Shown here one piece after another: positions 31,291 to 61,210 of a stretch of 64,000 nucleotides of DNA. The DNA is taken from positions 49,687-113,686 of the IMG/VR virus record IMGVR_UViG_3300045988_114464; one strand, given 5' to 3'. Both the position numbers and the translations under genes were made by a program. The first letter of the stretch is position 1, and the number at the start of each line of letters is the position of its first letter. Source of the DNA: a virus. The notes under the pieces are model-generated. The model saw only the letters and a program-made list of their open reading frames with translations, ran no database searches and was not told the origin of the DNA.

Positions 31291-31349
31291 TAAAAAACAA
31301 TACTTCTTATTCATATAGATAGTATATCACAAGAAGTATTGTAAGTCAA
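31291..31349 (-). promoter_or_regulatory. composite terminator hairpin with nested promoter
   Basis: On the - strand: TTGACT, 17 nt, TATACT. The 12-nt arms ACAATACTTCTT/AAGAAGTATTGT bracket the -10, followed by TTTTT. Confidence 0.6.
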
Positions 31350-31356
31350 GGGTTAT

Positions 31357-31596
31357 TTAGTTGTCAGAATTAAAAAGAGTAACGTTACAGTCAACCATAA
31401 TAACACGGTCACTTTCACCATAAGTGTAAGATACACTATCCACACGAGCAGTTTCACAAGTGTTGGGTGAAGTGTAGATATATTCGCCTACACGCGGAGT
31501 AGGTGAACCGAGTGGCATTTCCCACTGTGCGTATACATAGTCGCTATATTGACCTGATTCTGCGTCAAGGTCAAATAGTCTGATTAGTGTGTTCAT
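31357..31596 (-). CDS. hypothetical protein
   Basis: 79-aa ORF whose ATG overlaps the nrdG stop. Confidence 0.5.
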   Translation of the reverse strand: MNTLIRLFDLDAESGQYSDYVYAQWEMPLGSPTPRVGEYIYTSPNTCETARVDSVSYTYGESDRVIMVDCNVTLFNSDN

Positions 31597-32117
31597 TAAG
31601 TTCCCTCCATTAGAATAGGTTGTTCTTGCCCCAGTGACATATGAGATAAAATAACACGTTGATTAGATGAACCACGCCACTTTAGCGAAGGGTCGCGTAG
31701 CGAATCAATGTATTGTCCATCTACTATTACGTCACATAATGATATTAGGTTTTGGCGGTAGATTCTCATGTCAGATTCATCGTTCCATATATCTTCCCAC
31801 TTGAAGCCAGTCCATAGCCATACTGTTTTACCAAGGCTACGAGCGGTTAAAGCAAGTTGGTTCATAATATGAAAACCTGTGTTGTCTTGACATAGTGGGT
31901 CGCCACCTGTGAATGTAATACCACTGCACCAAGGTTGACGAAGCGTGTCACAGACGAAATTAAATTGTTCTTCGCCAAATTCGTCACCATTGCGGCTATC
32001 CCATGTTTCTGGGTTAAAACAGTTTTGACAATGATGATTACAACCAGATACCCAAACTACGCAACGTAAACCGCTACCGTTATTCATGTTACAAGAGTCA
32101 ATTTTAATATAGTTCAT
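31596..32117 (-). CDS. nrdG: anaerobic ribonucleotide reductase activating protein (radical SAM)
   Basis: CNHHCQNC (CxxxCxxC) cluster, GGDPL motif, located directly downstream of nrdD. Confidence 0.85.
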   Translation of the reverse strand: MNYIKIDSCNMNNGSGLRCVVWVSGCNHHCQNCFNPETWDSRNGDEFGEEQFNFVCDTLRQPWCSGITFTGGDPLCQDNTGFHIMNQLALTARSLGKTVWLWTGFKWEDIWNDESDMRIYRQNLISLCDVIVDGQYIDSLRDPSLKWRGSSNQRVILSHMSLGQEQPILMEGT

Positions 32118-32126
32118 ACTGACACC

Positions 32127-33089
32127 TCACATTGATTTGCGGTCTTTGAACTCTGCGAGTTTGTGGTCTGCATACATGGTTCTGCCTTTGATTTTAGAAT
32201 ATCCTAAATATCCGTTCATTCTCTCAATACGAGTGATGTTTTTACTGCCACATTTAGGACATTCATCTTTATCAATGAAAGAAGCGCCACAATCTTCACA
32301 ATAATCAAGCTGTAGATTTACACCTTCATAGAAGCCCATATCCATTGCTCTACGAATGAGAGTTTTCATTGCTTCAATATTGTAGTCTGTAGTATAACGA
32401 CAATATTGAATATTACCACCATTACATAGATGGAACATTGGATATTCAATATCTTGCTTTTGAATAGGCGAAATATCTTCCCATACACCACAATGAAACG
32501 AATTAGAAGTGTAAGGACGGTCAGATACGCCCTTAATAATGCCGTATTTCTTGCGGAACTGCTCGACCTGCAAACCGCAAAGGGATTCAGCAGGAGTTCC
32601 GTAGAGAGCATATAGAATGTTGTCGATTTTCTTATATTTCTCAGCATAATCATTGATAAACTTCAAAACTTCAATGGCAAAAGTATTATCTTCGGCAATG
32701 GTTTTACCGTTATACAGTACACTGGTTTCATTGAGTGCAGTAATACCAAAACTCATTGTCATAGGACGAAGGAAATCTTCGCCAATTTCTTCTTCTGGGT
32801 CAAAGTGACCATTAAGAAAACCGCCTTGACAGAAAGCAAGTGGGTTAGTACCAGCTTTCTTGTGAGAAAGATAAGTAAATGTGCGCTTGTGAATAGCGCG
32901 GCACATATCAAGATAATAAGTTAGTACGTCATAAAAATCCTTGTTTTCTTGCTTTGCTTTAGCAAGAATCATAGGAAAGTGAAGGGAGATTGCTCCGAGG
33001 TTACAACGCCCTTCATATACAGGCTTGTCTTGGTCATCTGCGGGGTACATACCGCCACGCTCATACCAAGGTGAAAGATTTGCTCGACA
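32127..33089 (-). CDS. nrdD: anaerobic ribonucleoside-triphosphate reductase, exon 2
   Basis: Starts CRANLSPW. C-terminal Zn ribbon CEDCG...CPKCG and glycyl-radical motif RMNGY. Confidence 0.9.
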   Translation of the reverse strand, partial: CRANLSPWYERGGMYPADDQDKPVYEGRCNLGAISLHFPMILAKAKQENKDFYDVLTYYLDMCRAIHKRTFTYLSHKKAGTNPLAFCQGGFLNGHFDPEEEIGEDFLRPMTMSFGITALNETSVLYNGKTIAEDNTFAIEVLKFINDYAEKYKKIDNILYALYGTPAESLCGLQVEQFRKKYGIIKGVSDRPYTSNSFHCGVWEDISPIQKQDIEYPMFHLCNGGNIQYCRYTTDYNIEAMKTLIRRAMDMGFYEGVNLQLDYCEDCGASFIDKDECPKCGSKNITRIERMNGYLGYSKIKGRTMYADHKLAEFKDRKSM

Positions 33090-33910
33090 CAAGGGAATTA
33101 TATCCCTTAGACTATATCATAATTGTTTGGTCAATTCTTCGCGCTTCCATAGCAAGAATTGCACTTGCTATGTACTCTACTTGGTTACTTTCTGATACAA
33201 CCCAAATTACATATCAGATACCCTTTCGATAGTCGTTTAACATACATATTCAAATTTGTAATTATCGAAGTAATTAGGACTTAATTCGCCTTTTAGCACT
33301 CGCGCAATTTTGTGCCTATCCATATGTAAACATCTACCAGCTTCACGAATAGAAGTGAAATTTTGCACATTGCCTTCTTTGTCAATAGCGCGAATAGCCG
33401 TGTTGTTTTTGTGTGTTCTATTGCCACTATCCCAACCATGTTGTACATTATAAGCATTAGTACACCATTCAAGATTTTCAAGACGATTGTCTGTTTTATC
33501 AGAATTGATATGATTAACGTACTTATAATTGTTAGGATTTGGGATGAAACAATGTGCTAAGATAACATGAACTCGTTCATGTACAAAACTGTGGTCAGGT
33601 AAACTACGCATTACTTGCATATATCCATCACTGCCTTTATGTGGGGTGACTTGATTACCTGTGCGAGAGTTATAAAAGTTAAAATTTTCATCTACCAAAA
33701 ATCCGTTGTATTCTTTATATTGCATTTTATCACCTTCTTTCGTATAAAATCATTTGAATATGCTTAGCACAGCGATTATTTCATACTTTTGTATGAACCT
33801 TCCCTGTTAGCAGAGATATTAACAAACCATTTCCTGTTTGAACTTACGTTATCTCCACACCATATATTTATATGTTCACGAAGTTTTACATGGGCTATCG
33901 TGTCATTTCA
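33090..33910 (-). mobile_element. group I intron in nrdD
   Basis: P1 is AUGGGU paired with GCCCAU, with a U.G pair at the 5' splice site. The 3' core is GATATAGTC followed by a P9 hairpin. Omega-G at 33090. Splicing restores ...ISRMG-CRANLSPW. Confidence 0.85.
33237..33725 (-). CDS. intron-encoded HNH homing endonuclease
   Basis: VNHINSDKTDNRLENLEWCTNAYNVQH (HNH_3 pattern). Lies entirely inside the nrdD intron. Confidence 0.8.
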   Translation of the reverse strand: MQYKEYNGFLVDENFNFYNSRTGNQVTPHKGSDGYMQVMRSLPDHSFVHERVHVILAHCFIPNPNNYKYVNHINSDKTDNRLENLEWCTNAYNVQHGWDSGNRTHKNNTAIRAIDKEGNVQNFTSIREAGRCLHMDRHKIARVLKGELSPNYFDNYKFEYVC

Positions 33911-35098
33911 ACCCATTCGACTAATAGTTACACCATACTTTTTATAAATTTCTGGTGCATAGCCATCACCTGTACACGAGATAAAATCGGGGTACATACA
34001 TTTGCTACTGCAATCAATCGCTTCATCAAACAGCCATTCCAGTTCTTTGCCTTCGCCGTGAAGTTCTTTATCATAAAGGAAACTTAGTTTAGGAAATAGC
34101 ACAGGATGTTTGAAACCTTTCTTACCTTGTCCTTCCTTGCGTACCCTTAGGCAAACAGAAGATAGCATAGATTCCATACGGTTAGTACCCAGTCCAAAAG
34201 AAACAGCGGTAAACGGATAATCGCCACGACTTGAAGCCACAGAATTAAACTTCATTTCCCATGCTTGGAAACCTTGCTCTGCTTCACGAGTAACTTTATT
34301 AAAAGCATAGGTATCTGCCGCTTGTTCAAATGCCTGACTGCTTGTATTACCTTGCCAATTATCTACGATTGCGAAATAATCTTGGTAATATTTCTCATAA
34401 CTCTTTTGAGCATAAGGAGCAAGTAGCTTATCAATCTCGCTGATTGTATAGCCACCATACTGAGCCGCCGCCATATTCATTGCAACATCAGCTACAAGGT
34501 CGAAAGCTACATCAAGGCTATGCGGTTCTTCATAATCGAGATTACCCATAGTAAAACCACCAGTAAGAATTGACTTCATATCAGCAAGGCAACAGTTTAC
34601 ACTATCAAGTCTTGAGCCACGGTCGTGAATATAGATATAGCCTTCAGACATTGCTTGTTCTTCTTCGATAGTAAGGAAGAATTTCTTGTAAAGTTCACTG
34701 TTTAATTCATTGTACACAATAGCCTTTTGTGTGGTTACAAGAGCACTATCGGCATTAGCATTGCTTCTATCTCCGATAAAAGATAGAGACAGCTTCTTGC
34801 TATATACCTTATCCAACATTGAAGCAAAGGCGCTCTTATTGTCACGATATTCACGATAAGATTTTGCTACCGCTGAATTAACCGAATCAAGAGCAACTTC
34901 CACCATATTGTGAATAGTATTGACAGGAACAGGAGTTTCATTATACTGTAGCTTGCCACGAACGGTTGATACAACCTTATCTTCGTCATTCTTAGATAAA
35001 GGCATACATACACGTTCCGCACTTTTTTGGATAGCTTTGCGAATCTTGTTTCCGTCAAAATTTACGATAGCCCCATTCTTTTTAAGGACTTTAATCAT
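33911..35098 (-). CDS. nrdD: anaerobic ribonucleoside-triphosphate reductase, exon 1 (ATP-cone N-terminus)
   Basis: The N-terminus MIKVLKKNGAIVNFDGNKIRKAIQ fits an ATP-cone. Ends ...ISRMG at the 5' splice site. Confidence 0.9.
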
Positions 35099-35142
35099 AA
35101 ATTATCACACTCCCTTGTATATAAATTTTTATAACCTACAAT

Positions 35143-35176
35143 ATCTTGTAGAATACCATAGTAACATAAAAATGTT
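35143..35176. promoter_or_regulatory. perfect 15-bp inverted repeat upstream of nrdD
   Basis: ATACCATAGTAACAT-aaaa-ATGTTACTATGGTAT. No U-tract on either strand. Confidence 0.4.
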
Positions 35177-35217
35177 ACTATGGTATGAACAAATTGTAAA
35201 CAAATTATGAACAATTA

Positions 35218-41255: not shown

Positions 41256-41714
41256 TTAGTTAATTTCTCTAAAATCTTCTACAGTTTCTTCGCAACCGTT
41301 ATACGAAATACAATAAACATAAAAGAAATAAGCGTGTCTTGCGTCCATAGCCTTGTAAATCGTGATGTGGTGGGTTTCGTAACTTTCAAAGTTATCGTCC
41401 CATGCATCTGTGGTGAATACTTCTTCGCTAAACTTACTTGCGTGCTCTTCAAGCCAATTTGGTGTGATTTCTTCTACGCAACAAGCATCATAACTAAAAC
41501 CTATATCTTTAGACCGAGAATGCACTACGGTATAAGAAGTGTATTCATCATCACTGTTTTTCGTAACCGTGCAAATATGTCCCCAATCGCCCATGCGTCG
41601 AGAAACGCCCAAAATTTCCGCACGGTCAGGAAAGAAGTTTACAAACCCTTCATGCTTCTTGGCTTCTTTCAGTGCTTCAACCCACGGTTTGATATATACT
41701 TTCATAGTTTCCAT
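41256..41714 (-). CDS. hypothetical protein (tandem paralog 2)
   Basis: RBS aaggagg before ATG 41714. METMKVYIKPWVEALKEAKK...GDWGHI...CCVEEI. Confidence 0.55.
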   Translation of the reverse strand: METMKVYIKPWVEALKEAKKHEGFVNFFPDRAEILGVSRRMGDWGHICTVTKNSDDEYTSYTVVHSRSKDIGFSYDACCVEEITPNWLEEHASKFSEEVFTTDAWDDNFESYETHHITIYKAMDARHAYFFYVYCISYNGCEETVEDFREIN

Positions 41715-41768
41715 AATAAAACCTCCTTGATTTGATACTATTGTACCATTCTCAAGGAGGTCTGTCAA
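41715..41768 (-). promoter_or_regulatory. composite terminator hairpin with nested promoter and SD-containing 3' arm
   Basis: On the - strand: TTGACA, 17 nt, TACAAT. Arms ACCTCCTTGA/TCAAGGAGGT bracket the -10, followed by TTTATT and the ATG. Confidence 0.6.
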
Positions 41769-41785
41769 GCATTTATTTTAAGTTT

Positions 41786-42136: not shown

Positions 42137-44371
42137 TTAGTTCTCCTTCAGCATATCTTTCAGCCAAGTATCTCGTGTAGTTTCTTCTTGTACTTCTAAC
42201 GCATCTCTCAACACATCTACATCGCTAATAACAATTAACTTATCACGAGAACGTGTCATAGCTACATAGCATAAGTTGCGAGATAGTAGACGCTTATGTG
42301 CTTGGTCGGCAAGGAAAATTACCGCCTTTGCACTCGACCCTTGGCTCTTATGTGTAGAAATACAATAGCCCAAAATCAAGTTTCTAAGGTCAGCACCTTC
42401 ATATACACCGTAGCCATTCTCAAATTCAACAATAAGAGCATAACCCTTATCAGTTTCCATAACTTCGCGCACATAACCAATATCACCATTCATTACTTCG
42501 ATAGGGAAAGAAGAGCTAAAAGAACCTTCATCATTCAGCGCAACAGCGGTCATGCGATAATTGTTCTTGGTGTTTAGTACCTTATCGCCCCACTTAAACT
42601 GAATCTTACCACCCTTATTGTTATCTTCGTATTCAACAGGCGTATAGTCTCTATCATTGAAATGCGCTTGGATAGCACGATTGATTGCCACTGAGCCAGC
42701 TTCACCCTTGTTAAACGGCGAAAGAATCATAATATCGTCCTTAGTATATCCTTCATCGAGCAAATGCTGATATTCTGTCATCACTTGCTTAATAGGATTT
42801 GAAATCGGCTCAAATTCATAATCGTCATACTTTTCTGCTATATGGTCAATATTACCGTTACGAGTATCAGTTGCAATCGTGATTAGACCGCTTGTAGAAT
42901 AGCGAAAAATCTTGTTTAGACTTGCTACTGGTACAATTCCACTATTGATAACATCAACGATAAAATTGCCACATTGAATAGATGCTAACTGTGCAGGGTC
43001 GCATACAAATACAAGTTTGCATTTATAGCCGACCTTTTTGAGAAGTTGTGCCATAAGGTGTACGCTTACCATTGAACTCTCGTCTACAATAACGACACCA
43101 CGATACTGCATACACTGACCTTCTTGTTCATCCATGCTATGCTGTGCAAGAAAACGATGAATAGTAGAAGCCTTACGCCCTGTGCTATTAGCCAATACTT
43201 TACTTGCAATACCAGTAGGTGCTAATAACATATAGTCTACACACATATCTTCTAACATACGAACAAGCGCTTTGGTAGACGCTGACTTACCCGAACCACT
43301 ATAACCACGAAGGACGCAAATATTCTGCTCCCAAGTATTATAAAGCACTTGCATCTGCTCATCGGTACACTTAAAGCCGTCAACTTCTCTGAACTTTTCA
43401 AAGTCTGGCTCGTTCATAGTGTATTCTGTTTCAAAGATATTACCTTGTAGTAGTCTATCCTTAATATGTTTTGCAATCGTTTCTTCGGCTTCATAAGTAT
43501 CAATCAACGCCGAATAACCAGTAGTTTCATCGTGATGAATAAAACGGCAACCGTTTACTACTTCTGGAATGTACTCTTTGCACTCTGGAATCATTTCTTC
43601 TGCCATATAACCGAGAACTTCTGCTTCAATGCGCGTATCGCCTTCAAGTTCGTTCTCATGTAGAATATTAACACAGCCATATTCACAGCGAAGTTTGCTG
43701 TTTTTTAGGTCAGGATAGCGCTTCAACACCTCTCTATCGCTCTTAGCAAACGACCAGTTAATAACATCGTGATAAATACGGTAAGGATTTTCTTCAAAGT
43801 CTTGCTGAAGCAGTTCTGGACTTGCGTATTTGTCCGAAAGTTTCTGTACATCTTTGTCTTGTGTGATACCCAATTCAGCGCAAACGGGGAAGAAAAGGAT
43901 GGATTCAAGGTTCTTCTTAATTTTATCAATATACATTTCAACGCGAACCTTGCCTACGTTATAAATGTTATGATAATCAATATCTTCTTCTTCACCGCGC
44001 AACACCATCTGAACAAAGTGAGGATATGCTTCATGCACACGTTCGGCTTGAATATATTCCATCATCGTGCTAAGAATAGATATTTCTTTTTCTTCTTCGA
44101 CTACAATCTCATCTTTTTCCATCTTTAGACCCGGATAACCGACAAGAATATAACTTGCTGGACGTTTGGCGTTCTGATTAGGGCGAATAGTAATTTCAAC
44201 TTCATCGCCTTCCTTAAAGCCAAACAGATTGCTACCAGAGATAGAGAAGCCACCCCACTTATCAAGTTCCATATTATAGTTTCCAATGGGTTTACAGCCC
44301 AAAATACGGAACTCATCAAGATAATTGACGAATACTTGCTTTCTAATTTTGCATTTAACGTCTAATGCCAT
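42137..44371 (-). CDS. RecD-like SF1 DNA helicase
   Basis: Walker A GYSGSGKS, Walker B VVIVDESSM, FVCDPAQL, C-terminal STHKSQGS...YVAMTRSR. RBS ggagg before ATG 44371. Confidence 0.85.
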   Translation of the reverse strand: MALDVKCKIRKQVFVNYLDEFRILGCKPIGNYNMELDKWGGFSISGSNLFGFKEGDEVEITIRPNQNAKRPASYILVGYPGLKMEKDEIVVEEEKEISILSTMMEYIQAERVHEAYPHFVQMVLRGEEEDIDYHNIYNVGKVRVEMYIDKIKKNLESILFFPVCAELGITQDKDVQKLSDKYASPELLQQDFEENPYRIYHDVINWSFAKSDREVLKRYPDLKNSKLRCEYGCVNILHENELEGDTRIEAEVLGYMAEEMIPECKEYIPEVVNGCRFIHHDETTGYSALIDTYEAEETIAKHIKDRLLQGNIFETEYTMNEPDFEKFREVDGFKCTDEQMQVLYNTWEQNICVLRGYSGSGKSASTKALVRMLEDMCVDYMLLAPTGIASKVLANSTGRKASTIHRFLAQHSMDEQEGQCMQYRGVVIVDESSMVSVHLMAQLLKKVGYKCKLVFVCDPAQLASIQCGNFIVDVINSGIVPVASLNKIFRYSTSGLITIATDTRNGNIDHIAEKYDDYEFEPISNPIKQVMTEYQHLLDEGYTKDDIMILSPFNKGEAGSVAINRAIQAHFNDRDYTPVEYEDNNKGGKIQFKWGDKVLNTKNNYRMTAVALNDEGSFSSSFPIEVMNGDIGYVREVMETDKGYALIVEFENGYGVYEGADLRNLILGYCISTHKSQGSSAKAVIFLADQAHKRLLSRNLCYVAMTRSRDKLIVISDVDVLRDALEVQEETTRDTWLKDMLKEN

Positions 44372-44425
44372 AAATAAGACCTCCGTTCTTGCGATTATTG
44401 TACCATAGAACGAAGGTCTTGTCAA
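44372..44425 (-). promoter_or_regulatory. composite terminator hairpin with nested promoter and SD-containing 3' arm
   Basis: On the - strand: TTGACA, 17 nt, TACAAT. 13-nt arms AGACCTTCGTTCT/AGAACGGAGGTCT (one G.U pair), followed by TATTT and the ATG. Confidence 0.6.
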
Positions 44426-44440
44426 GCATTTTATTCGATT

Positions 44441-45903: not shown

Positions 45904-45932
45904 CATTGTACCATCATCTTCATTGATTGTCA
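45904..45932 (-). promoter_or_regulatory. sigma-A type promoter
   Basis: On the - strand: TTGACA, 17 nt (ending tgg), TACAAT. The -35 lies inside the last codons of the upstream HNH-like gene. Confidence 0.5.
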
Positions 45933-46585
45933 AGATTTTTTGTAGCTTGTGTATGCTTTATTGGTGTTTCAAAAGCACTCTCTACAGACCATTTAAGGCG
46001 TACTATACGATTATAAATAGCATTATAAGGAAGATTTAACTCTTTGCACCATTGTGATAAGTTTTGGGTAGTTTCTTTGTATACTAACTTATGATTAGTC
46101 TGTCTATTATTTGCTTGCATTGTTCGGTCAGTCCAACGGCAATTATTTGGCTCATAATTTCCATTGTTATCAATACGGTCGATAGTAAGCCCTTCTTGAT
46201 AGCCATTTTTTATAGACCATCTATAAAACATTTCAAATGAATTGAGCCAATCGTCACAGATTGTAATTCCTCTGCCACCATATCTATTATAATTTTCAGC
46301 GTTGGGATTGTAACATCTTGCCTTCATTGTTTTCCACACACCATAAATTTTATCGTACCTATGTCCGTGTTTGGTATGAACTTTAGCAGTAATTTCACTG
46401 TGTAAACATCCACAACTTTTTGTATTATCGCTTCGCAAGTTACCTGCTTTAACTATAAGATGTGTGTGATTTTCACAAGAACATTCACATTCCCATAGAT
46501 ATTGTCGGTCTGTGCTTTTCCCAGCAAAACGAATGACTTTCAACCGCCCAAAAGTTTGCCCCGTTAAATCATATCTTTGTTGCAT
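45920..46585 (-). CDS. free-standing HNH-like homing endonuclease (paralog family of three)
   Basis: LTGQTFGRLKVI...WECECSC...SCGC; LTIDRIDNNGNYEPNNCRWTDRTMQANN. Confidence 0.65.
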   Translation of the reverse strand: MQQRYDLTGQTFGRLKVIRFAGKSTDRQYLWECECSCENHTHLIVKAGNLRSDNTKSCGCLHSEITAKVHTKHGHRYDKIYGVWKTMKARCYNPNAENYNRYGGRGITICDDWLNSFEMFYRWSIKNGYQEGLTIDRIDNNGNYEPNNCRWTDRTMQANNRQTNHKLVYKETTQNLSQWCKELNLPYNAIYNRIVRLKWSVESAFETPIKHTQATKNLDNQ

Positions 46586-46691
46586 AATAATACCTCTTAT
46601 CTAAATATTATTGGAATAAGGGAGTATTGAGATAAGCAATACTCCCTTTACAAAGAAGTTATGCGCTTAACTTCTTTTATTCCTATTTTTA

Positions 46692-46720
46692 ATTATATCA
46701 CATTTTTATCAAGAAGTCAA
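46692..46720 (-). promoter_or_regulatory. sigma-A type promoter for the HNH-like gene, followed by a two-hairpin leader
   Basis: On the - strand: TTGACT, 17 nt (ending TGa), TATAAT. 9-bp and 12-bp hairpins at 46653-46676 and 46618-46648. Confidence 0.55.
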
Positions 46721-49242
46721 TTATTTTTTTCTTGGTTTTCACCATATCTTTGAAATTGAATCTCAATTTCGCCATTTTTTCTAACTTCAGTAATTAAATT
46801 TATTGGATAAGGAAAGATAGAATTTTTATAGGTCTTAACAACAAAAGTATCATCTCTACGGTAGCCTGTTAAAATTAACAAACATCCTCTGCCAAACCAT
46901 GATTTATCTACAATTATTCTTTCTCCATTTTTTTCGACAGAAATTTGCGCTTTATACTTAGCAAATTCAAGTCCATTAAATTTTATTTGTACTACATTAT
47001 TATTGGTGTCCAATATAGTAATACTATGATGAGCGTCATTACGCGCTATTACTGTTCCCATAATTCGACTAAGCTGATACTGTCGCCATTCACGCTTGCC
47101 GTACTTTTTAGTAACAAACATTGGCTCAGTAGGCAACTTATCAAATGTAGTAACATTGTATCTATCAGCGTCAATGCAAGCTAATTCATGCTCATTAGAG
47201 TAATAGGACAGTGCTTCAAAACTCCAATGATTAACGTTCATGTTAGGCAACTTATCACGCATACGAGCCTTGATAGATTGTTCGTTATACATTTTTAGGA
47301 ACTCTGGCTGGTTAATATAAGCCTTTAGTTCTTCAGTGACGTTCTTGAATAGCTTCTCAAGCGACTTATCTACAACAAGCGTTCTGCCTTCCTCATCATA
47401 CCACCAATCTACATTTTCTTCAAGTTGACTACGGCACATTGAATCGAAGAAAACTAATGCTCGTTCGTCAAGCCAATAGATTTTCTTTGACTTGAATTTA
47501 GGATGTGTACCATAGAGGAATTGCTTTGAACACATGTATTTTTTGAAAGCAAGTGGCATGGTAAGGGTGTTGGGTAGCTTACAGCCAATGCGTTGTAATT
47601 CAGCTAAATTAGCAGTGGTAAGTGTTTGTTTGCGAGGGGTAGAAAGGGCGAAATACGCTTGCATGACACGCATACGGTCAGGACAGAACTCATCAAAACA
47701 GCCAGCCTTAATTAGTTGGATAAACTTAGATGGTGTGATAAGTGTACCTTGGTATGAGTTGCGCGTATAGAAGTCGCGGAAAGAAGTGTAGGGGCGGTTT
47801 GCGATAATTTGTTGAGCAATTTCTGCGTTAATGGATGAAATACCGCCTAAACCGAAAAGAATGGTGTTATCTTTTTCTCTTGGCGTGAAGTCCATATCTG
47901 AACCATTAGCAGAAGGAGCACTAACATAGATATTAGATTGACGCATTTTATAGATGGCTTTAGCAATCTCTGAATAATCTGTACTGCCCTTGCGTTCGAC
48001 CTCTGATTCAACACCAGATGCTTCGGTGGATAGACACGCGCAATTCCAATATACACGAGGATAGAAATAATTAAGATTAAGTTCTTGTAGAGCAATAATT
48101 GAATAAGAATAGGAATGTAATTGGGAGAAGGAATATCCCATACTTGCCGCAAATACAACATTCCAAATATAATCAAGGAATACTTCTCGCGTACCAATTT
48201 TACGTCCATATTCAAAAAATTGTTGCTTTGCTTCTTCTTGTAGCTTTGCTGACTTCTTTGCGATGGATTTACGAAGTTTGTTGCTTTCTTTCAAAGTATA
48301 ACCAGCTACACGCTTATCCATAGACAAACGCATAACTTTTTCCTGTGAATCTGCAAGACCATAAGCGTCTGAAAGATATTCCCACAGAACTGCGCGTTCT
48401 TCGTCATTTAGTCCAAAGCTAATAGTGTCTTGTACCCATGCTTCGTGACTGTTTTTATAACGAATATAACGGTCAATAGGTGTTTCGTCTGCATTATCTG
48501 GTTGTAATCGCAATAGGCTATTAGCCGCAGACAAATCCATTACTGAGCGAGGTTTAGTTGCAGACAACGCTTTAGCCGAAATCGGAGTATCAAATTGAAA
48601 GACAGAATAAATAGATGGTAGAATATCCCACATTTTAGTATCATTGTATTCCAATACATCAGGATGTAGCCACTTGTAATATGTTGCTTTAAGTGAGCCT
48701 TCCCATGTAATTTTGCCGTTTGCTAACAGATAGTCCATTGTTTTATGAATCTTATCTGCCGCAGAAACCGATAGCATATCCATCTTAACCAGACTTGCGG
48801 CTTCGCTATCCCATAGGTCATAACAGGTGCTTAATGCTCCATCAGGCGAACGAATAGCAGAAACGTAATTAACATAAGGCTCGTTACAGAGCGTTACTCC
48901 TGCGGCGTGACGACCTCGATTAGTAATCAATCCTTCAAGACCAAGAGCGGATTCTTTAAGTCCTTCATATTTAGCCATTTCATTGACCATTTCAGTAATA
49001 GGTCGTTCTCCAAGCAAACATTCCTTTAGACTTGCTACTTTACCACGGTTGACAGGAACAAGAGATTTAAGATAACCAGCGGTATCATTTCCAATACCCA
49101 GTCCTTTACAAGCGCGTTCAATAGCTGTTTTTGCAGAAATCTTAGAAAAAGTAGTTACATTAAGAACCTTATCTTCTCCAAAGAACTCTTTCATTTTATT
49201 GACGATTGCTTTCTTTTTGGATGCTTCAGAATCGTTATCAAT
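46717..49242 (-). CDS. dnaE: DNA polymerase III alpha-type (C-family) polymerase, exon 2
   Basis: Begins IDNDSEA, completing the PD-IDND catalytic Asp motif. Long polymerase body. No RBS of its own. Confidence 0.85.
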   Translation of the reverse strand: MDNDSEASKKKAIVNKMKEFFGEDKVLNVTTFSKISAKTAIERACKGLGIGNDTAGYLKSLVPVNRGKVASLKECLLGERPITEMVNEMAKYEGLKESALGLEGLITNRGRHAAGVTLCNEPYVNYVSAIRSPDGALSTCYDLWDSEAASLVKMDMLSVSAADKIHKTMDYLLANGKITWEGSLKATYYKWLHPDVLEYNDTKMWDILPSIYSVFQFDTPISAKALSATKPRSVMDLSAANSLLRLQPDNADETPIDRYIRYKNSHEAWVQDTISFGLNDEERAVLWEYLSDAYGLADSQEKVMRLSMDKRVAGYTLKESNKLRKSIAKKSAKLQEEAKQQFFEYGRKIGTREVFLDYIWNVVFAASMGYSFSQLHSYSYSIIALQELNLNYFYPRVYWNCACLSTEASGVESEVERKGSTDYSEIAKAIYKMRQSNIYVSAPSANGSDMDFTPREKDNTILFGLGGISSINAEIAQQIIANRPYTSFRDFYTRNSYQGTLITPSKFIQLIKAGCFDEFCPDRMRVMQAYFALSTPRKQTLTTANLAELQRIGCKLPNTLTMPLAFKKYMCSKQFLYGTHPKFKSKKIYWLDERALVFFDSMCRSQLEENVDWWYDEEGRTLVVDKSLEKLFKNVTEELKAYINQPEFLKMYNEQSIKARMRDKLPNMNVNHWSFEALSYYSNEHELACIDADRYNVTTFDKLPTEPMFVTKKYGKREWRQYQLSRIMGTVIARNDAHHSITILDTNNNVVQIKFNGLEFAKYKAQISVEKNGERIIVDKSWFGRGCLLILTGYRRDDTFVVKTYKNSIFPYPINLITEVRKNGEIEIQFQRYGENQEKNN

Positions 49243-50111
49243 CAATTATACCGTTGGTTATTTATTCCCAATACTTTAACACTGATTTAACAGTCGGTTT
49301 AGACTATATCTTCATCTCTATTTAAGAGAGGATGGCGCTGGATAAGGGGAGTTTCACCCCTTACCGCTTAGTCGTTGCAGATTTCTTTATCCATTTGTTT
49401 AGTCCAAACATTAAGAGTATAATTCTTTGTTCTCCGATATTTAACTAAACTCGTATATGAAATACAAGGGTTGTATTTCTGAAGAAAATCGCGTAGTTCT
49501 GTGCCACCTACTAATATAGGCGATACTACTTCTCCGTCTTTTAATACTTGATAATGTTTATAATTGCGTAAAGCGTTTATTCCACTATCTGTATAACTTT
49601 GATGGATATTTTCTTCTTGAGTAATCCATTTAAGATTAAGTATAATGATTATTATAAATATTGGCATCTTTGTGTCCCACAACAGCACCTTCAAACCAAC
49701 CGTTTATAAAATGCAAAGCAACCAATCTATGAATTAAACAATGTTTATATATTCCGTCATTTCGCTTCAGAGTAACACAAAGATAAGCACTTGTTGAACC
49801 ACAATAAGGGGACAATTTTCTCCATTTGTTTCCCATGCGTTTTGACATAACAGTTCCGTTATCTCCGATAGCGTAGCCATCATAATTTTTAATAGCTACA
49901 AATCGTTCACCGTTAATCGTAAAAAGTGTTTCCATCAGTTTCACCTCCTTTGTATTAAAATGTTTGGATAAAGACTTTCCACAGTATTGCCATGTTGCCG
50001 ATTCTAAACAACAAGGTTTCCACTGTTAGCACCTTGTAAAGGCACACCCTGTATGTACAGGTTCACCATCTTGTTTTCTATGCGTCACCGCATAGCCAGA
50101 CTATGTTGTTA
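49243..50111 (-). mobile_element. group I intron in the DNA polymerase gene
   Basis: P1 is CCAGAU paired with GUCUGG (11-16 nt into the intron), with a U.G pair. The 3' core is GAAGATATAGTC. Omega-G at 49243. Splicing restores ELPD-IDND. Confidence 0.85.
49368..49935 (-). pseudogene. intron-encoded HNH homing endonuclease, frameshifted
   Basis: RBS aaggagg before ATG 49935. ...VVGHKDANIYNNHY ends at a stop, and the motif continues as LNLKWITQEEN in the +1 frame (ORFs 49636-49944 and 49368-49694). Confidence 0.7.
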
Positions 50112-51563
50112 ATCTGGAAGTTCCACACCTCTCATGTGATTTAAGTGTCGCCAAGACGGCATATAATCACCAAGGGGAAGAGGGTCAATTTGAGTAATTG
50201 AAAGCAAATAGCAAGTTTCAAAGCCAGCCGCAGAACCACGGGCGGGCATTGACAAACTACCAGCGTCCCAAATCAGTTCGATAATTTCTGTCATCGTACT
50301 GTAATAAGACGGCATGGAAGTATGAAGCTGGTCACTGATAATTTTAAGTTCTTTCCATTCTTCGTTTAAGCGTTGAATGTAAGGTTCTACTTCCTTTCCA
50401 CGATTTAGCACCTTATCAATCAAACCTTGTTCAGCTTGATAGAAAAAATATCGTTCATGGATAGGGCGGTCAGCACTTGCATAATAACCAAAGTATTCAT
50501 ATTTATCATAATATTCTTTGAATTTATGTCGAGTATGAAAAATCTTTGGTAGTTTGTCTAATGGAATTTGAGGGATAATAGGGTCATGTAGAATGTTATA
50601 TTCTTGTACTCTATCAGCAATCTCATCGCTCCAAGCAAACATCTTATCAATTTGCTCATTAGTAAAGTCAATAAGTAGATATTCACGCAATTCTTGTTCG
50701 CTCATGCAATATGCCGTTGCATAAAATGAGTCTACTTCTCTATCGCCTTCTTGCGAAAGCAAATAGGTCTTGTGAATAACCGCATCTTCTTTTCTAAGAT
50801 AATGTGCGTCAGTTGTGGCGATAATAGGAATATTTGTCTTTTCATGCAGTTTCCACAACAAACGATTAACCTTGCTTTGGTCTGTATCGGCTTCACTTGC
50901 TGGCTGTACTTCAAGATAAAAATTACCTTTGCCAAAGATATACTGAAAATAATTGGCTTCTTCTACCGCTTGTTGAAAAGAACCTTGTAAAAGAAGTTTG
51001 TCAATTACCGAGCCTAAACAAGCTGAACTTGCTATTACATGACCACGATTACCACCAATCACTTCTTTAAGGTCGGTATAATACGTTGGTCTACGATAAA
51101 TTTTACCTTGTTTCCATGCTCTTATCCATGCTCTTGTAGACAATTCACGCAGTTGCTTATGACCTTCAGTATCAAGAGCAAGAAGAATAAAGTGATAATA
51201 CGGTGTAGAGTTTGGCGTTTCGCGGTTAAGCAAATCATCTTCTTCTCTAACAGCGTAAATCTCATTACCTAAACCAAGAGTAAATGGTCTATCTTTCTCC
51301 ATAGACTGCCATTTCTTCAAGGCTTGAATATGGCTACTGATACCTTCGTGTTCAGTAATACTGATACCACGCAAGCCAATATCATAAGCGTATTGAATCA
51401 AGTCTGGCAATCTATTTACTACATCAGGGAATCCAAGCATTGCATTGCTGTATTCCGAGTGCGTGTGATTATTGTACACTTCTAACCCCTCCTTAAAACA
51501 AAAATGGGAATAGCTTTTAACTACTCCCATTCTATCACATATCTGTTCACTTGTCAAGCTCAA
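50112..51563 (-). CDS. dnaE: DNA polymerase III alpha-type polymerase, exon 1 (PHP domain)
   Basis: PHP motifs NHTHSEYS, ITEHEG, ATTDAHY. Ends ...GVELPD at the 5' splice site. Confidence 0.85.
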
Positions 51564-55848: not shown

Positions 55849-56026
55849 TTAACCAAAAAGATAGTACACAGTAACAAGAGAAGTTACAAAATACATAATT
55901 AAGACGCATCCAAAAATAAATGCGTATTCTGAAGTAATAGCCAAATATAATAGCACTGCAAAAATAATAGTCCACAGCGAAATACCTAACGAAACCATAA
56001 TAATTGTACCTACCATAAAAAACAAC
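55849..56026 (-). CDS. small membrane protein
   Basis: RBS aaggagg before ATG 56026; almost entirely hydrophobic. Confidence 0.5.
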
Positions 56027-56084
56027 CTCCTTTGTTTATGTATCAATGATACCACAAAGGAGGTTGTATGTCAAGGGATTTTAT
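56027..56084 (-). promoter_or_regulatory. composite terminator hairpin with nested promoter and SD-containing 3' arm
   Basis: On the - strand: TTGACA, 17 nt, TATCAT. 12-nt arms AACCTCCTTTGT/ACAAAGGAGGTT, followed by gTTTTTT and the ATG. Confidence 0.6.
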
Positions 56085-56093
56085 GAAATTTTA

Positions 56094-56543
56094 TTAAAAG
56101 CCATATATAGAAATATCATATTCTACAGTAGCACTCCATTGATAATTACTACCCACTTGATGTGAAGAAAAATAACAAGGATATTGAGTACCTCCCACAG
56201 AAGAACTTACATTGTTATATTGCCAATATGAATTTCTCCTATAAGCAAATGCGCTACCTACCATTGTTGAACCACTTCCAGAAGTCGATAGTAATATACC
56301 ATCGTTTACTCCATAACCTGTTACTTGATTTCCCAACGAAGTATATAAAGATGATAAAGTGCCGTTTACATAAATATTAAATTTTATCAATAGCAAAGAA
56401 TATTCATCATCTACTGAAAAAGAATAAATATTGCAATCTGTTCTATTATATTCTTTGTTTATTGTCCCCGTTTTATGGTCGAGTAACGACAATGAAACAG
56501 AAGATGTTTCTGCTGAACCTTCCTTCATCACCTTGGCGTTCAT
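56094..56543 (-). CDS. hypothetical beta-rich protein (paralog 2 of the MxAKVMKE pair)
   Basis: ATG 56543 gives MNAKVMKEG...; preceded by the G-rich gtggggtgg. Confidence 0.55.
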   Translation of the reverse strand: MNAKVMKEGSAETSSVSLSLLDHKTGTINKEYNRTDCNIYSFSVDDEYSLLLIKFNIYVNGTLSSLYTSLGNQVTGYGVNDGILLSTSGSGSTMVGSAFAYRRNSYWQYNNVSSSVGGTQYPCYFSSHQVGSNYQWSATVEYDISIYGF

Positions 56544-56945: not shown

Positions 56946-56990
56946 TCAACGTAAGCCCCCCCCCAGTGAAACAATGGTTTGGTTAATCAT
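56946..56990 (-). CDS. 14-codon leader ORF crossing the G9 tract
   Basis: RBS aaaggagg 9 nt before ATG 56990. Encodes MINQTIVSLGGGLR followed by a stop, as sequenced. Confidence 0.4.
   Translation of the reverse strand: MINQTIVSLGGGLR
56956..56964 (-). repeat. G9 homopolymer inside the leader ORF
   Basis: Direct count: C9 on the + strand. Confidence 0.95.
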
Positions 56991-57023
56991 AGACCAAATC
57001 CTCCTTTATAAATTATATTAACC

Positions 57024-57881: not shown

Positions 57882-59578
57882 TCATCATCGTCAGCAAGCG
57901 ACTTAACCTTGCTCTTAGGCGCAATCTCGTACTGTTGAATCATAGCTTGAGGATAGTAGCGACCGTTCCATTCGTTTGTACAAAGGGTTACTATTGCTTC
58001 AAATGTAAATTTGTCGTACTTTTCCCATTCAGCGGATTGTTCTTCACTTAGTCTAAACTTAATAAAATCTACGCCGTAAGCACTGATTTTACCTGTTGTT
58101 GTTTTCTTTCTGAATAAACGAACCCAGTTCTGATAGCAAGTAAACTTGACATAAAACGTAGGCTCAACAACACCACTACCTGCGCTACCCCACATATCTT
58201 TATATTCTTCACAGTTCATACAGAGTGGAAGATTGATTTGCTGTGGAGTCAACCTTGCTGTAACATCTATTGTATCACAAATTACATCATTTGTCAAGTG
58301 CGAATCGAGATATTTTAGAAGTTTTTTTAGATTGGCTTTAGGCATGATTAAGCCTGAAGCGCATTCGTGACCTTCAGCCTTGGCAAGTTGTGATTCATTG
58401 ATGATGCTTGCAATGGGGAAAGGTGAGCGCATACTACCAGAATATTGTGTTGGATTGACTGGACGCAGAACGAAAGACGGCTTATTCACAAGTGATAGCA
58501 TCTTATTCGCTACCAACCCAGTATAGTTAGCTTGCTCGTTCTCGATAAATCCAACAGCGGCTTTATGCTCATTATCCATATCTTCGCTGACTTTAGACAT
58601 AATCTCGTCTACTGTCTTACGTTGTTCATTTACAGCCTTACGAAGAACGGCAATACCACCTGCCATATCACATTCGCCAACAAGCGACTCAAAGAAAATA
58701 CGCTTGCCTTCTTGGTCATTACTGCGACATAGAGCATTGATTGGTGGAATACACCCAAAGGAAAAGCCGTGTGGGTCTGTTTCACCCTTGTAGTTTAGCG
58801 TCTGTACAAGTTCATTGAGTTCTGGCGCGTAGTCAAGATTCTTAATTCCGTCTATAAAATATGTTCGGTTCTCAAGACTCGTCATATCGCATACATCGCT
58901 AATTAGACTAACGGCGATAAAAGGTATATATTCTTGATAAATTTTAATCTCGGTAATTGGGTCTAAATAAAGTTCGCCATATCGCTCAATCAGCTTAAAG
59001 GTAACACCTGTACCTGACAAAGCCGTGTTTAGTCCAGTGCCGAGATGATGATTGACAACGGTAGCGTAGTTGTTGCTTGTAGGCGTAGTTTCATGGTGGT
59101 CACATACGATGGTCTGCACACCATTTTCCTTCAGCGTCATGCAAGGTTCATTGTCAGAACTGCCAGCGTCAGGAATGATTAGTAGCTTTGCGCCAGAATC
59201 AATAACTTGTTGTACCATGTTTTCTGTCGTTTTTAGCCCGTGTTGCTTCGCGGTATGGAATAGAACTTGAATTTTATCTTGAGGAACGTCAAGATATTCT
59301 TTCAGAAATTTGTACATTATGGCACTTGAAAGGTTGCCGTCAGTATCGCTGTCAACACAAATTGCAACTTTTTCGCCCTTTTCAACTGCTGTCTTAATCT
59401 CAGCACAAGCAACATCAATGTTAGGATAATTGCCAGCATAATCATAGCAATAAGCTACATCGCCATTACCAGAGAGGTCGATATAACGCTCGACCTCATC
59501 TTCCTTCACACCACAAGCGACAAGATATTCACGAATGAAATCTCCTGTGACTTTGTTTAATAGTGGGCGTACTTTCAT
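57863..59578 (-). CDS. recJ: RecJ-like DHH-family single-strand DNA exonuclease
   Basis: DHH family motifs CVDSDTDG, IIPDAGS, VCDHHE. Confidence 0.75.
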   Translation of the reverse strand: MKVRPLLNKVTGDFIREYLVACGVKEDEVERYIDLSGNGDVAYCYDYAGNYPNIDVACAEIKTAVEKGEKVAICVDSDTDGNLSSAIMYKFLKEYLDVPQDKIQVLFHTAKQHGLKTTENMVQQVIDSGAKLLIIPDAGSSDNEPCMTLKENGVQTIVCDHHETTPTSNNYATVVNHHLGTGLNTALSGTGVTFKLIERYGELYLDPITEIKIYQEYIPFIAVSLISDVCDMTSLENRTYFIDGIKNLDYAPELNELVQTLNYKGETDPHGFSFGCIPPINALCRSNDQEGKRIFFESLVGECDMAGGIAVLRKAVNEQRKTVDEIMSKVSEDMDNEHKAAVGFIENEQANYTGLVANKMLSLVNKPSFVLRPVNPTQYSGSMRSPFPIASIINESQLAKAEGHECASGLIMPKANLKKLLKYLDSHLTNDVICDTIDVTARLTPQQINLPLCMNCEEYKDMWGSAGSGVVEPTFYVKFTCYQNWVRLFRKKTTTGKISAYGVDFIKFRLSEEQSAEWEKYDKFTFEAIVTLCTNEWNGRYYPQAMIQQYEIAPKSKVKSLADDDDWRDLF

Positions 59579-60753
59579 ACGTTTACACCATTTACACGAA
59601 GATAATCACAAATCGGGATAAGAGCCTTAAAGTCAGGGCTGTGAATTGCTGGATAGCACTCTGGCATACCCCATTCGGGCTTGAACGTCAGAGACACACA
59701 CGTTTGATTACCAAAGTGCATCATTTTATTATACTCGCCAATCGCCCACTGTTTAATATAGCACAGACCCACTGGCTTATTTCCACAATACAGCGCCTTG
59801 ATAGAATCACTTCTAAACTGCTCTACCATTTCGTTAAACGGAATAGCTACATACATTTCACAATCTGGGTCATTGAGAACGTCAAATCCAAAAGACCATG
59901 AATCACCTGCGGAACTGTAAGCAATATCAGCATAAATTTCTGTCTTTCTACCGTTTTCACGAGAATAGGCGAAATTAGCTACATTATAGCTATTGTCATC
60001 CTTGTAGAAAGTGACAATCGTCTTACCGCCAAGCGCATCATCAATCGACTTTTTGCTCGGCTTCTTTCCTACCTTCGACTTAATAATAAAGCTACGACCC
60101 TTGGTAGCACGACCATAACCAGAGCGATATGCGGCGACAACCATCTTCTTGACAACAGAAGAATACATATCAATATCTCCAACACGGATTGGAACAAACT
60201 GGTTCAGTTTTGGCTTCAGCATTTCCCATACTTCGTCATCGGTGTAGTTAGGCTCAACTTCGTAAAACAGCTTAACATCGTCCTCATTGCACCACCGTGA
60301 CTTTGTGCCATCTTCCCAAACGTCAACACCCTCGGCATTGCCCCAATCAACCATTAGGGTATTCTCGCCAAACACTCCCGTGTCAATCATTTTTACAGTA
60401 CCAACAGTACCAACTACGGGGTAGAATTGACTTACCATTTCGTGCTTCTTAGCATTGGTGAAAACAACCTTATCACCAACCTTAAACTTGCTCATATTGC
60501 AAACTTCCTTTTGTGTATTTACTTGCGTATTTGCGTTGACTTTTGCTAATCTCTTCTCGCCGCACCACCAAGTATATTTGCCATTAAGATTACAGTTTAC
60601 TCCTGAATCTTGACCCCAATCAACAAGAGCCGTTTCATCGCGGAGCGAATACTGAACTACAACACCAATACTACCCTTTGCGGGATAATTCTCAGGATAT
60701 TTCGTGTGAAACTCATTTTCCATCATCATTACTTCATCGCCAACATTAAGCAT
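59575..60753 (-). CDS. hypothetical protein with two N-terminal SH3-like repeats
   Basis: ATG 60753 overlaps the upstream stop (TAATG). Repeats VGDEV...YP..G.IG.VV...VDWG and VGDKV...YP..GTVGTV...VDWG. Confidence 0.55.
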   Translation of the reverse strand: MLNVGDEVMMMENEFHTKYPENYPAKGSIGVVVQYSLRDETALVDWGQDSGVNCNLNGKYTWWCGEKRLAKVNANTQVNTQKEVCNMSKFKVGDKVVFTNAKKHEMVSQFYPVVGTVGTVKMIDTGVFGENTLMVDWGNAEGVDVWEDGTKSRWCNEDDVKLFYEVEPNYTDDEVWEMLKPKLNQFVPIRVGDIDMYSSVVKKMVVAAYRSGYGRATKGRSFIIKSKVGKKPSKKSIDDALGGKTIVTFYKDDNSYNVANFAYSRENGRKTEIYADIAYSSAGDSWSFGFDVLNDPDCEMYVAIPFNEMVEQFRSDSIKALYCGNKPVGLCYIKQWAIGEYNKMMHFGNQTCVSLTFKPEWGMPECYPAIHSPDFKALIPICDYLRVNGVNV

Positions 60754-61148
60754 TATCTTGCACGCTCCTTCATCTTGTCGCAAAAGCCCTGAAAACTATC
60801 GTGAATATAGTCCTTGACGAGACACATAACAGGATGGTCTACTTCATCAATCGCAATCCATGACTCGCACTCGTCATCTTCAAACGGACACCAATACTTG
60901 TCCTTGGTGTAAATTTTAAGAATCATATCTTCTTCGTCATACTCAATGTAATCGAAGCGAGATTCACTACTATGTTCACGAAACTTCTTGCTTGTGTCCT
61001 TCTCACGGCGGAACAGTGACGCTTCTTTAAGCATCTCACTCGCAAATTGAATGAAACTGTCAATAGGAATAAGCGATTCTGTTCCGTCAATCATGCCGAC
61101 ATAAACCAGCGGCTCACCTTCGTGCTTCAACACTTTACCAAAAAACAT
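60753..61148 (-). CDS. hypothetical protein
   Basis: 131-aa ORF; RBS aaggagg. Confidence 0.5.
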   Translation of the reverse strand: MFFGKVLKHEGEPLVYVGMIDGTESLIPIDSFIQFASEMLKEASLFRREKDTSKKFREHSSESRFDYIEYDEEDMILKIYTKDKYWCPFEDDECESWIAIDEVDHPVMCLVKDYIHDSFQGFCDKMKERAR

Positions 61149-61210
61149 ATTAAATAACCTCCTTGGTTTGTTTGTGAATACATTGTATCACATACCAAGG
61201 AGGTTGTCAA
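61149..61210 (-). promoter_or_regulatory. composite terminator hairpin with nested promoter and SD-containing 3' arm
   Basis: On the - strand: TTGACA, 17 nt (ending TGa), TACAAT. 11-nt arms AACCTCCTTGG/CCAAGGAGGTT. Homologous to the 56027-56095 region. Confidence 0.6.

Follow-up and report, generated by a model that had tools for sequence, protein, structure and literature searches.

Promoters nested in hairpins that include the next Shine-Dalgarno sequence at gene boundaries of a phage-like genome

Layout of the window and anatomy of the nested modules

The DNA analysed here (the window) is a stretch of 64,000 nucleotides, positions 49,687 to 113,686 of the IMG/VR virus record IMGVR_UViG_3300045988_114464. 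The window has a GC content of about 38% and looks like a portion of a tailed phage genome. Structural genes occupy the + strand from position 1 to about 26,400, and these include a 2,022-residue open reading frame (ORF, 9286-15354) that, by its size and position, may encode the tape-measure protein. The - strand, from about 26,400 to 64,000, carries replication and nucleotide-metabolism genes, among which are a split DnaE-type polymerase, RecJ, a RecD2-like helicase, NrdD, NrdG, a dUTPase and an amidase endolysin, together with a weak ThyX match (Pfam Thy1, slightly below the cutoff). The subject of this study is a compact element that recurs between the genes of this - strand block, in which a promoter, an RNA hairpin and, at most sites, the Shine-Dalgarno (SD) sequence of the next gene occupy the same nucleotides.

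Five such modules had been pointed out in an initial annotation of the window, and all five are found on the - strand where they had been placed, each with a -35 (TTGACA or TTGACT), a spacer of 17 nt and a -10 (TACAAT in three modules, TATCAT and TATACT in the others). The match to the sigma-A/sigma-70 consensus is 10-11 of 12 positions at all five sites, with the spacer being exactly 17 nt each time. The spacer ends in TGn (extended -10) at five of five sites, which had not been mentioned before, and the seventh base after the -10 is always an A preceded by a pyrimidine, as expected for the predicted transcription start (+1). The regions upstream of the five promoters are A-rich.

In module 61210 (61146-61210), the -35 TTGACA (61210-61205) is followed by the TGn-extended -10 TACAAT (61187-61182) and by a predicted +1 at A 61175. 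The 5' arm AACCTCCTTGGT (61205-61194) faces the 3' arm ACCAAGGAGGTT (61167-61156), which contains the SD sequence; after the tail ATTTAAT comes the ATG (61148-61146) of a gene for 131 residues (60753-61148), and a fold of 20 bp that ends in a 3-nt tip is predicted (dG -22.7 kcal/mol, z -5.38). Module 56074 (56014-56074) has its -35 TTGACA at 56074-56069, its -10 TATCAT at 56051-56046 and the predicted +1 at A 56039. The arms ACAACCTCCTTTGT (56067-56054) and ACAAAGGAGGTTGT (56035-56022, with the SD sequence) belong to a fold of 19 bp (dG -23.3 kcal/mol, z -5.81), and the T-run at 56021-56017 directly precedes the ATG (56016-56014) of a gene for 55 residues (55849-56016).

Module 44425 (44369-44425) precedes the gene of the RecD2-like helicase (42137-44371, ATG at 44371-44369). 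Here, the -35 TTGACA (44425-44420), the -10 TACAAT (44402-44397) and the predicted +1 (A 44390) are combined with the arms AAGACCTTCGTTCT (44420-44407) and AGAACGGAGGTCTT (44389-44376, with the SD sequence), which pair with one G.U pair and are followed by the tail ATTT; the fold has 18 bp (dG -21.0 kcal/mol, z -5.84). In module 41768 (41712-41768), the corresponding elements are the -35 TTGACA (41768-41763), the -10 TACAAT (41745-41740), the predicted +1 at A 41733, the 5' arm AGACCTCCTTGA (41763-41752), the 3' arm TCAAGGAGGTTT with the SD sequence (41730-41719), the tail TATT and the ATG (41714-41712) of a gene for 152 residues (41256-41714), in a fold of 17 bp (dG -23.8 kcal/mol, z -6.55). 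In module 31349 (31275-31349), which has the -35 TTGACT (31349-31344), the -10 TATACT (31326-31321) and a predicted +1 at A 31314, the arms ACAATACTTCTTGT (31342-31329) and ATAAGAAGTATTGT (31310-31297) are AT-rich and do not include the SD sequence. They form a classical hairpin of 19 bp (dG -16.8 kcal/mol, z -4.50), which is followed by a T-run (31296-31292; T6), a separate SD sequence AAGGAG (31291-31286) and the ATG (31277-31275) of the gene 30828-31277. The earlier statement that GGAGG lies in the 3' arm of four copies therefore holds, with module 31349 being the copy that has the AT-rich arm.

The arms as first quoted are correct, and the outer stems extend beyond them, to 12-14 bp in most modules. 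The -10 had been described as lying in a loop, which is imprecise, as an open loop of 17-28 nt is not predicted: the "loop" folds into an inner stem, and the result is a closed rod, 45-50 nt long, which contains 17-20 bp and has its tip of 3-6 nt on the -10. The predicted +1 is 3' of the entire 5' arm at five of five sites. The distance from the upstream stop codon is 1-14 nt to the -35 and 11-26 nt to the 5' arm.

The A/T-rich upstream flanks are shared in pairs. Modules 61210 and 56074 have TAATAAAATTTCATAA in common (61211-61235 and 56075-56100), and in modules 41768 and 44425 (41769-41785 and 44426-44440) the -35 is preceded by ATAAA(A)TGC and followed by GACCT. The paired flanks suggest that promoter cassettes carrying UP-element-like sequences have been duplicated and that their arms may have diverged later while remaining complementary.

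The nested arrangement is far beyond chance. When a gap-free stem of at least 12 bp, with G.U pairs allowed, is required in the geometry of the modules, it is found at 1.1% of random positions and at 6 of the 12 strongest - strand promoters. At one of these six, 51557, the stem measure picks up a G.U-rich mispairing, and a genuine hairpin of 14 bp exists at the same site. The folds of the five sites have z values of -4.5 to -6.6 and energies of about -17 to -24 kcal/mol, and none of 200 shuffled sequences is as stable, whereas two strong promoters without a module have z values of +0.65 and -1.7. Altogether, the predicted start lies inside a terminator-like hairpin at 7 of the 12 strong - strand promoters (dG -17 to -24 kcal/mol, z -4.2 to -6.6).

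Two further modules of the window are absent from the initial annotation. In module 51557 (51490-51557, - strand), the -35 TTGACA (51557-51552) and the -10 TAGAAT (51534-51529) are followed by a predicted +1 at A 51522, which falls at the 3' end of the 5' arm; the 14-bp hairpin (51533-51501) starts inside the -10, has a 3-nt loop (dG -17.2 kcal/mol, z -4.16) and is followed by the T-run TTTTTGTTTT and then by AAGGAGG. In module 29401 (29327-29401, - strand), upstream of the dUTPase gene (28729-29301), the -35 TTGACA (29401-29396) and the -10 TACAAT (29378-29373) precede a predicted +1 at 29366, inside the 5' arm of a perfect 16-bp hairpin (29375-29334) that starts in the -10 and is followed by a T-run (dG -19.1 kcal/mol, z -5.82). 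These two modules follow the same principle as the five listed above, in a different register.

Two further - strand promoters differ in their surroundings. Promoter 53677 (53677-53640) is without outer arms, and a 7-bp hairpin, ATGTGAT-acaata-GTCACAT, spans its -10; this hairpin resembles the inner stem of module 61210 (TGTGATAC / GTATTCACA). Promoter 46720 (46618-46720; TTGACT-17-TATAAT) overlaps the stop codon of a DnaE ORF, and two hairpins without T-runs (46677-46652 and 46648-46618) lie within its predicted transcript, upstream of the gene 45920-46585, a layout that is the reverse of that of the nested modules.

Occurrence elsewhere and probable action at the RNA level

The layout is present in many unrelated IMG/VR phage contigs and in some Clostridia genomes. 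The IMG/VR sequences were scanned for TTGACA followed 1-6 nt further on by CCTCCTT and, 20-45 nt after that, by AAGGAGG, with no -10 being required. Matches occur in at least 117 viral stretches, on contigs of many metagenomes and sizes. Among the matches listed, a -10 is present in 40 of 53 non-redundant ones, in 37 of them at exactly 17 nt, and the bases beside the fixed heptamers pair in 30 of 40 and in 24 of 29 cases, compared with 6-12 and 4-11, respectively, when the partner is slid by 1-2 positions as a control. At the same loci, a stem of at least 12 bp across the -10 is found at 38.5% of 78 other strong promoters, for which there was no selection for an anti-SD sequence, against a background of 1.2%. 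The arms found at these promoters vary widely, and the 3' arm tracks the local variant of the SD sequence (GGAGA, GGTGG and GGAGT, as in AAGGAGA, AGGTGG and GGAGTTG). Several of the 78 have stems of 18-22 bp with loops of 3-6 nt centred on the -10 and a T-run after the stem, and are thus shaped like strong intrinsic terminators. Arms without an SD sequence, as in module 31349, are also seen elsewhere (loci L051, L076 and L120).

In the scan of bacterial genomes, real modules are mixed with chance matches, which by estimate is to be expected for a collection of this size, and the scan is used only qualitatively. Real modules occur in Clostridia genomes assigned to Oscillospiraceae, a Clostridia metagenome-assembled genome, Phascolarctobacterium and Tissierellia. 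On three Clostridia contigs (L192, L216 and L230), a nested module stands before a small gene whose product starts with MTISLRLS.. and may, as a guess by eye, be a ribbon-helix-helix regulator or an antitoxin. This location shows that the cassette is not confined to phage early genes. The layout is also not universal, as a stem of at least 9 bp is found at none of 17 strong promoters in the first 50 kb of Bacillus phage SPO1, and a stem of at least 12 bp at 2 of 31 strong promoter-like sites of Enterocloster phage PMBT24.

The initial annotation took the covarying arms as support for a structural role, and this is borne out by dozens of independent modules, in which the arm sequences differ and complementarity is maintained. 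An inverted repeat over a -10 could also be a DNA-level operator that binds a dimeric repressor or activator, as palindromes in this position are typical of operators, and some of the bacterial matches lie upstream of genes for putative small DNA-binding regulators (judged by eye from the N-terminal sequence). However, the seven modules of this one genome have seven different arm pairs, the spacing between the arms varies from 17 to 28 nt, and the arms track the SD sequence rather than having a motif in common. The two strands also differ: the sense fold is more stable than the antisense fold by a mean of 5.5 kcal/mol, in 25 of 28 independently found modules (p = 7e-6), and among the pattern matches listed the sense margin is 2.1 kcal/mol for 40 matches (p = 1.5e-4), with 13 G.U pairs against 3 A.C pairs beside the stems. 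G.U pairs and a sense-over-antisense bias of 2-5.5 kcal/mol are unexpected for a DNA site. Because of the arm diversity, the variable spacing and the strand asymmetry, the operator is rejected as a highly improbable explanation, and the data point to a structure of the sense transcript, not to a binding site for a protein.

In a MAFFT alignment of 23 independent modules, the 3' arms are out of register. For this reason, alignment-based covariation was dropped, and pairing tests made for each sequence, anchored on the arms, were used.

Proposed termination, predicted sequestering of the Shine-Dalgarno sequence and known systems

The strongest predicted effect of the hairpins is on the accessibility of the SD sequence. 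The energy needed to open it in read-through RNA and in promoter-started RNA is 15.6 versus 4.3 kcal/mol for module 61210, 14.9 versus 0.2 kcal/mol for module 56074, 15.1 versus 0.6 kcal/mol for module 44425 and 15.8 versus 2.5 kcal/mol for module 41768. The proposal that the SD sequence is sequestered in read-through RNA and free in promoter-started RNA is thus in agreement with the predicted energies at the four sites with an SD arm (15-16 versus 0.2-4.3 kcal/mol), the starts in this comparison being predicted ones. In module 31349, the separate SD sequence is partly paired (opening energy of 6.4 kcal/mol). Perfect stems of at least 12 bp that sequester an SD sequence are found in the window only where a promoter is nested.

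It could be considered that the hairpin is only such a lock, as in phage T4, silencing the downstream gene on transcripts started upstream, for example at another stage of infection, without any useful termination. The size of the predicted occlusion (15-16 kcal/mol), the use of the SD sequence as the 3' arm in most modules and the interruption of three of the five U-tracts of the window are in line with this, and T4 provides a proven precedent for the same logic (PMC2988022). However, T accounts for 62% of the spacer between GGAGG and the ATG in 41 non-redundant module genes, compared with 27% (and 47% A) in 118 other genes at these loci (p = 2e-13), and this T-richness, limited to module genes, is not predicted by sequestering of the SD sequence alone; it supports a terminator component. 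A lock also does not explain the non-SD arms, for which hairpin and T-run come before a separate SD sequence (31349, 51557 and 29401 in the window, and L051, L076 and L120 elsewhere), and the promoters all look like the same sigma-A class, so that no temporal switch is visible. A lock without termination is therefore considered unlikely.

The converse possibility is that the terminator of the upstream unit has been squeezed over the promoter and the SD sequence by pressure on genome size, with the pairing of the SD sequence as a by-product. This is suggested by the very short intergenic gaps, with stop codons close to the -35 in the window (1-14 nt) and a median gap of about 7 nt for the modules elsewhere; for 84% of the latter, a co-oriented ORF ends no more than 40 nt away. 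The T-run is specific for the modules, some modules make no use of the SD sequence, and overlaps of terminators and promoters are known for ribosomal operons of Salmonella (PMC6735719). If termination is efficient, the pairing of the SD sequence is irrelevant, which makes this explanation hard to tell from a combined function. Nevertheless, the long anti-SD arms, tracking the variants of the SD sequence, suggest that this sequence has been chosen as an arm and not just tolerated, and the weak U-tracts imply that read-through RNA is made, on which a lock would have an effect. Termination with incidental pairing is quite unlikely on these grounds.

A role in RNA processing or stability, with the rod as a cleavage site of the RNase III type or as a protective 3' hairpin that splits polycistronic early RNA, would fit with the location of interrupted duplexes of 17-20 bp between genes, and a 3' hairpin would stabilise the terminated upstream RNA. 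The early RNAs of phages T7 and SP82 are processed at intergenic hairpins. Such a role predicts neither the nested promoter nor the T-run nor the use of the SD sequence; the modules have no conserved cleavage motif in common and no match to an Rfam family, and this explanation is very unlikely.

With moderate confidence, then, each site is considered to be a leaky intrinsic terminator combined with a translational lock on read-through RNA, the RNA of the nested sigma-A promoter being exempt from both. In this combined model, the site would be a compact boundary cassette between co-oriented transcription units of the phage replication and nucleotide-metabolism block, and a strong host-type (sigma-A/sigma-70) promoter would be housed in the RNA hairpin of 45-50 nt. 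Polymerase arriving from the upstream unit would transcribe both arms, and the rod with its U-rich tract would serve as an intrinsic terminator that is probably partial; wherever RNA reads through, the SD sequence of the next gene would be held in a duplex, preventing translation from foreign transcripts. The nested promoter would initiate RNA some 7 nt past the -10, where the hairpin descends, with a leader of only 19-37 nt. By starting there, its own RNA would be without the 5' arm, and it is proposed that this RNA neither terminates nor hides its SD sequence. The anatomy of the sites, its departure from chance, the covarying arms, the bias towards the sense strand, the T-run of module genes and the predicted energies are direct results of the analysis, and the start sites, the actual termination and the translational block are predictions.

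The terminator component of the combined model is consistent with the energies of the module hairpins, which equal those of the stand-alone terminators of the window, and with the T-runs, which follow the stem directly in modules 56074 and 31349 (T5-T6) and are also present in modules 51557 and 29401. Several observations weigh against it. The T-rich run before the ATG, reported initially for every copy, is strong only in modules 56074 and 31349, and in modules 61210, 44425 and 41768 A residues break it up, leaving 4-6 T in a stretch of 9 nt, such that termination may be partial. The module hairpins are long and have internal loops, and their energy per nucleotide is 0.37-0.53 kcal/mol, compared with 0.59-0.72 kcal/mol for the stand-alone terminators, which means that termination could be weak. 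Part of the T-richness of the spacer is due to the end of the outer stem, which pairs with A residues after the -35, and the comparison of distances to ORF ends is confounded by false promoter-like sites inside genes. As the terminator is downstream of the -10, it would give the promoter no protection from occlusion by incoming polymerase. In module 61210, the SD sequence is by prediction still partly paired in the promoter-started RNA (4.3 kcal/mol).

Each ingredient of the cassette has precedents. In T4, the ribosome-binding site (RBS) of the genes e, soc, I-TevI to III and segB is hidden in a hairpin on early transcripts, and the RNA of the late promoter is without the inhibitory arm (PMC2988022). 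These hairpins, and that of mobE of phage Aeh1, resemble the modules in that the RBS is hidden on RNA started upstream and the nested promoter escapes (PMC2988022). When the modules are compared with this type, the SD sequence is paired in upstream-started RNA at four of five sites, and the nested transcript is without the inhibitory arm at five of five, as judged from the predicted starts. In T4, a late promoter provides temporal control of late genes that are present on early RNA, whereas the modules have a full -35/-10 promoter of the host type. Also unlike in T4, the 5' arm lies in the 17-nt spacer, the -10 is at the hairpin tip, a U-tract follows, and the arrangement recurs at unit boundaries and in many Firmicute-type phages. 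The 12 strong - strand promoters have one sigma-A-type consensus, with no visible difference that would indicate temporal promoter classes. Since this difference is the defining feature of the T4 case, the cassette is not placed in the T4 family; the two only work alike.

A similar logic applies to IS10/Tn10, and to IS50. As in the modules, read-through RNA from external promoters contains both halves of an inverted repeat, by which the translation start is occluded, and the RNA made from the promoter of the element itself begins within this repeat. Davis, Simons and Kleckner (1985, Cell 43:379) are said to have found that fold-back of the leader protects the IS10 transposase gene from outside transcription. 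In contrast to the modules, IS10 has one such site per mobile element, for one transposase gene of Gram-negative bacteria, without a U-tract and with a spacer that is not an arm.

The terminators of the Salmonella tufB, secE, S10 and spc operons overlap the promoters of the next operons (PMC6735719). As in the modules, the upstream terminator covers the next -35/-10, the junction is compacted and the units are coupled. In contrast to the modules, these are chromosomal operons, the coupling proposed for them is promoter occlusion, and the passages of the study considered here describe neither an involvement of the downstream SD sequence nor a start inside the hairpin (PMC6735719). The modules have an overlap of this type, with the 5' arm of the hairpin within the promoter spacer and its tip on the -10. 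Canonical intrinsic terminators share with the modules a stable hairpin and a U-rich tract just past the stop codon, at similar energies, but the modules are longer (45-50 nt), have internal loops and in several cases broken U-tracts, and contain a promoter and an SD sequence.

The cassette merges these ideas: the SD sequence is the 3' arm, the U-tract is the spacer between the SD sequence and the ATG, and a complete host-type promoter lies within. A full-text literature search, in which subscription journals are poorly covered and which is thus weak evidence, yields no description of this triple overlap as a recurrent element. The suggestion that the design is undescribed does not apply to its ingredients, which are known from T4, IS10 and tufB-secE; what seems to be new is the triple overlap as a recurrent cassette.

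It is tentatively possible that a self-insulating cassette of about 60 nt, comprising terminator, lock and promoter housing, is a general design rule in a large set of phages and mobile elements of the low-GC Firmicute type, most of them uncultured, and that it may aid re-initiation and the swapping of modules. Most RNA polymerase of E. coli remains bound to the DNA after intrinsic termination and reaches promoters in the vicinity by diffusion (PMC7957599). Re-initiation might therefore be favoured when only about 30 bp separate a terminator from a strong promoter, which is speculative. If the design rule is correct, the boundaries of transcription units in many uncultured phage genomes could be read from the sequence, with one motif yielding promoter, terminator and start codon together. 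The virus would tie gene expression to the local promoter alone without spending intergenic space. Hiding of the RBS from foreign transcripts, so far seen in the isolated cases of T4 and IS10, would become a recurrent architecture. Synthetic biology in Gram-positive hosts would gain a natural insulator of about 60 nt, and the coupling of termination and re-initiation could be tested in a system where both signals overlap.

Relatives, possible module exchange and other features of the window

A megablast comparison of the window and three module-rich IMG/VR loci with 50,697 phage records gives no match. The nearest isolates by protein similarity are Enterocloster phages of 97-107 kb (45% identity for DnaE and 39% for RecD2). 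Three relatives are present in IMG/VR (L001-L003), all from one metagenome, two of which are nearly identical (contigs of 112-114 kb); the helicase identity of the third is 61%. No tRNA genes are found in the window, and a scan with Rfam 15 at the gathering score matches no family anywhere in its 64 kb.

In L001-L003, the modules are conserved almost base for base, module 51557 included. The single informative change among these close relatives is a C-to-T change in the 5' arm of module 56074 in L003, by which a G.U pair is kept. The comparison of the window with L002 over 44700-41100 shows sharp switches of identity, which is 92-98% up to module 44425 and then 55-75% in the helicase gene, rises to 97-100% at about 42180, stays there across module 41768 and drops to 55-60% beyond it. 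Of the three mosaic breakpoints, two coincide with a cassette, and the third, near 42180, is away from the modules. This pattern suggests that the cassettes may act as junctions for the exchange of gene modules. Taken further, the cassettes might persist mainly as homologous junctions at which related phages swap modules, for which the switches at modules 44425 and 41768 would speak; such a linker would account for the conservation of the cassettes, but would leave their internal complementarity, their covariation and the T-run without an explanation, and the breakpoint near 42180 is not at a module. As the main reason for the existence of the cassettes, a linker role is most improbable, and as a secondary consequence it is compatible with the model of a terminator combined with a lock.

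Other hairpins of the window are of different types. Where the + and - strand genes converge, there is a 14-bp hairpin (26433-26466), which is followed on the + strand by a T-run and resembles a classical terminator that may be bidirectional; it served as a reference terminator. On the + strand, upstream of the late gene 23369-25003, the region 23300-23371 has a hairpin ATATGAGG-ataa-CCTCATAT, followed by TAAATAAAAAATATATTTTTTATAAAAGGAGATTTTTTATT and the ATG, as well as a TATAAATA-like motif and an AT-rich repeat (23330-23368) over the SD sequence. From these motifs, it may be a different, late-type control region. A perfect inverted repeat of 18 nt with a 6-nt gap (TATTCCAAACTTTGCCAA / TTGGCAAAGTTTGGAATA), without a T-run, is located at 280-321, in or beside early + strand ORFs.

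Two genes of the - strand block are interrupted. The DnaE-type polymerase is divided over two ORFs. The PHP domain and the beginning of the NTPase domain are encoded by 50109-51563, and the remainder, which picks up at the next profile position, by 46717-49245; the gap of about 860 nt contains two small ORFs (49368-49944). This interruption may be an intron or an inserted element, and in the related Enterocloster phages an endonuclease is found at the position of the split. The nrdD gene, for the anaerobic ribonucleotide reductase (32127-35098, - strand), consists of an N-terminal part (33908-35098) and a C-terminal part (32127-33092). No group I intron is detected in this region at the Rfam threshold. 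Between the two halves of nrdD lies an ORF for an HNH homing endonuclease (33237-33725), and a second HNH ORF is present at 30031-30750.

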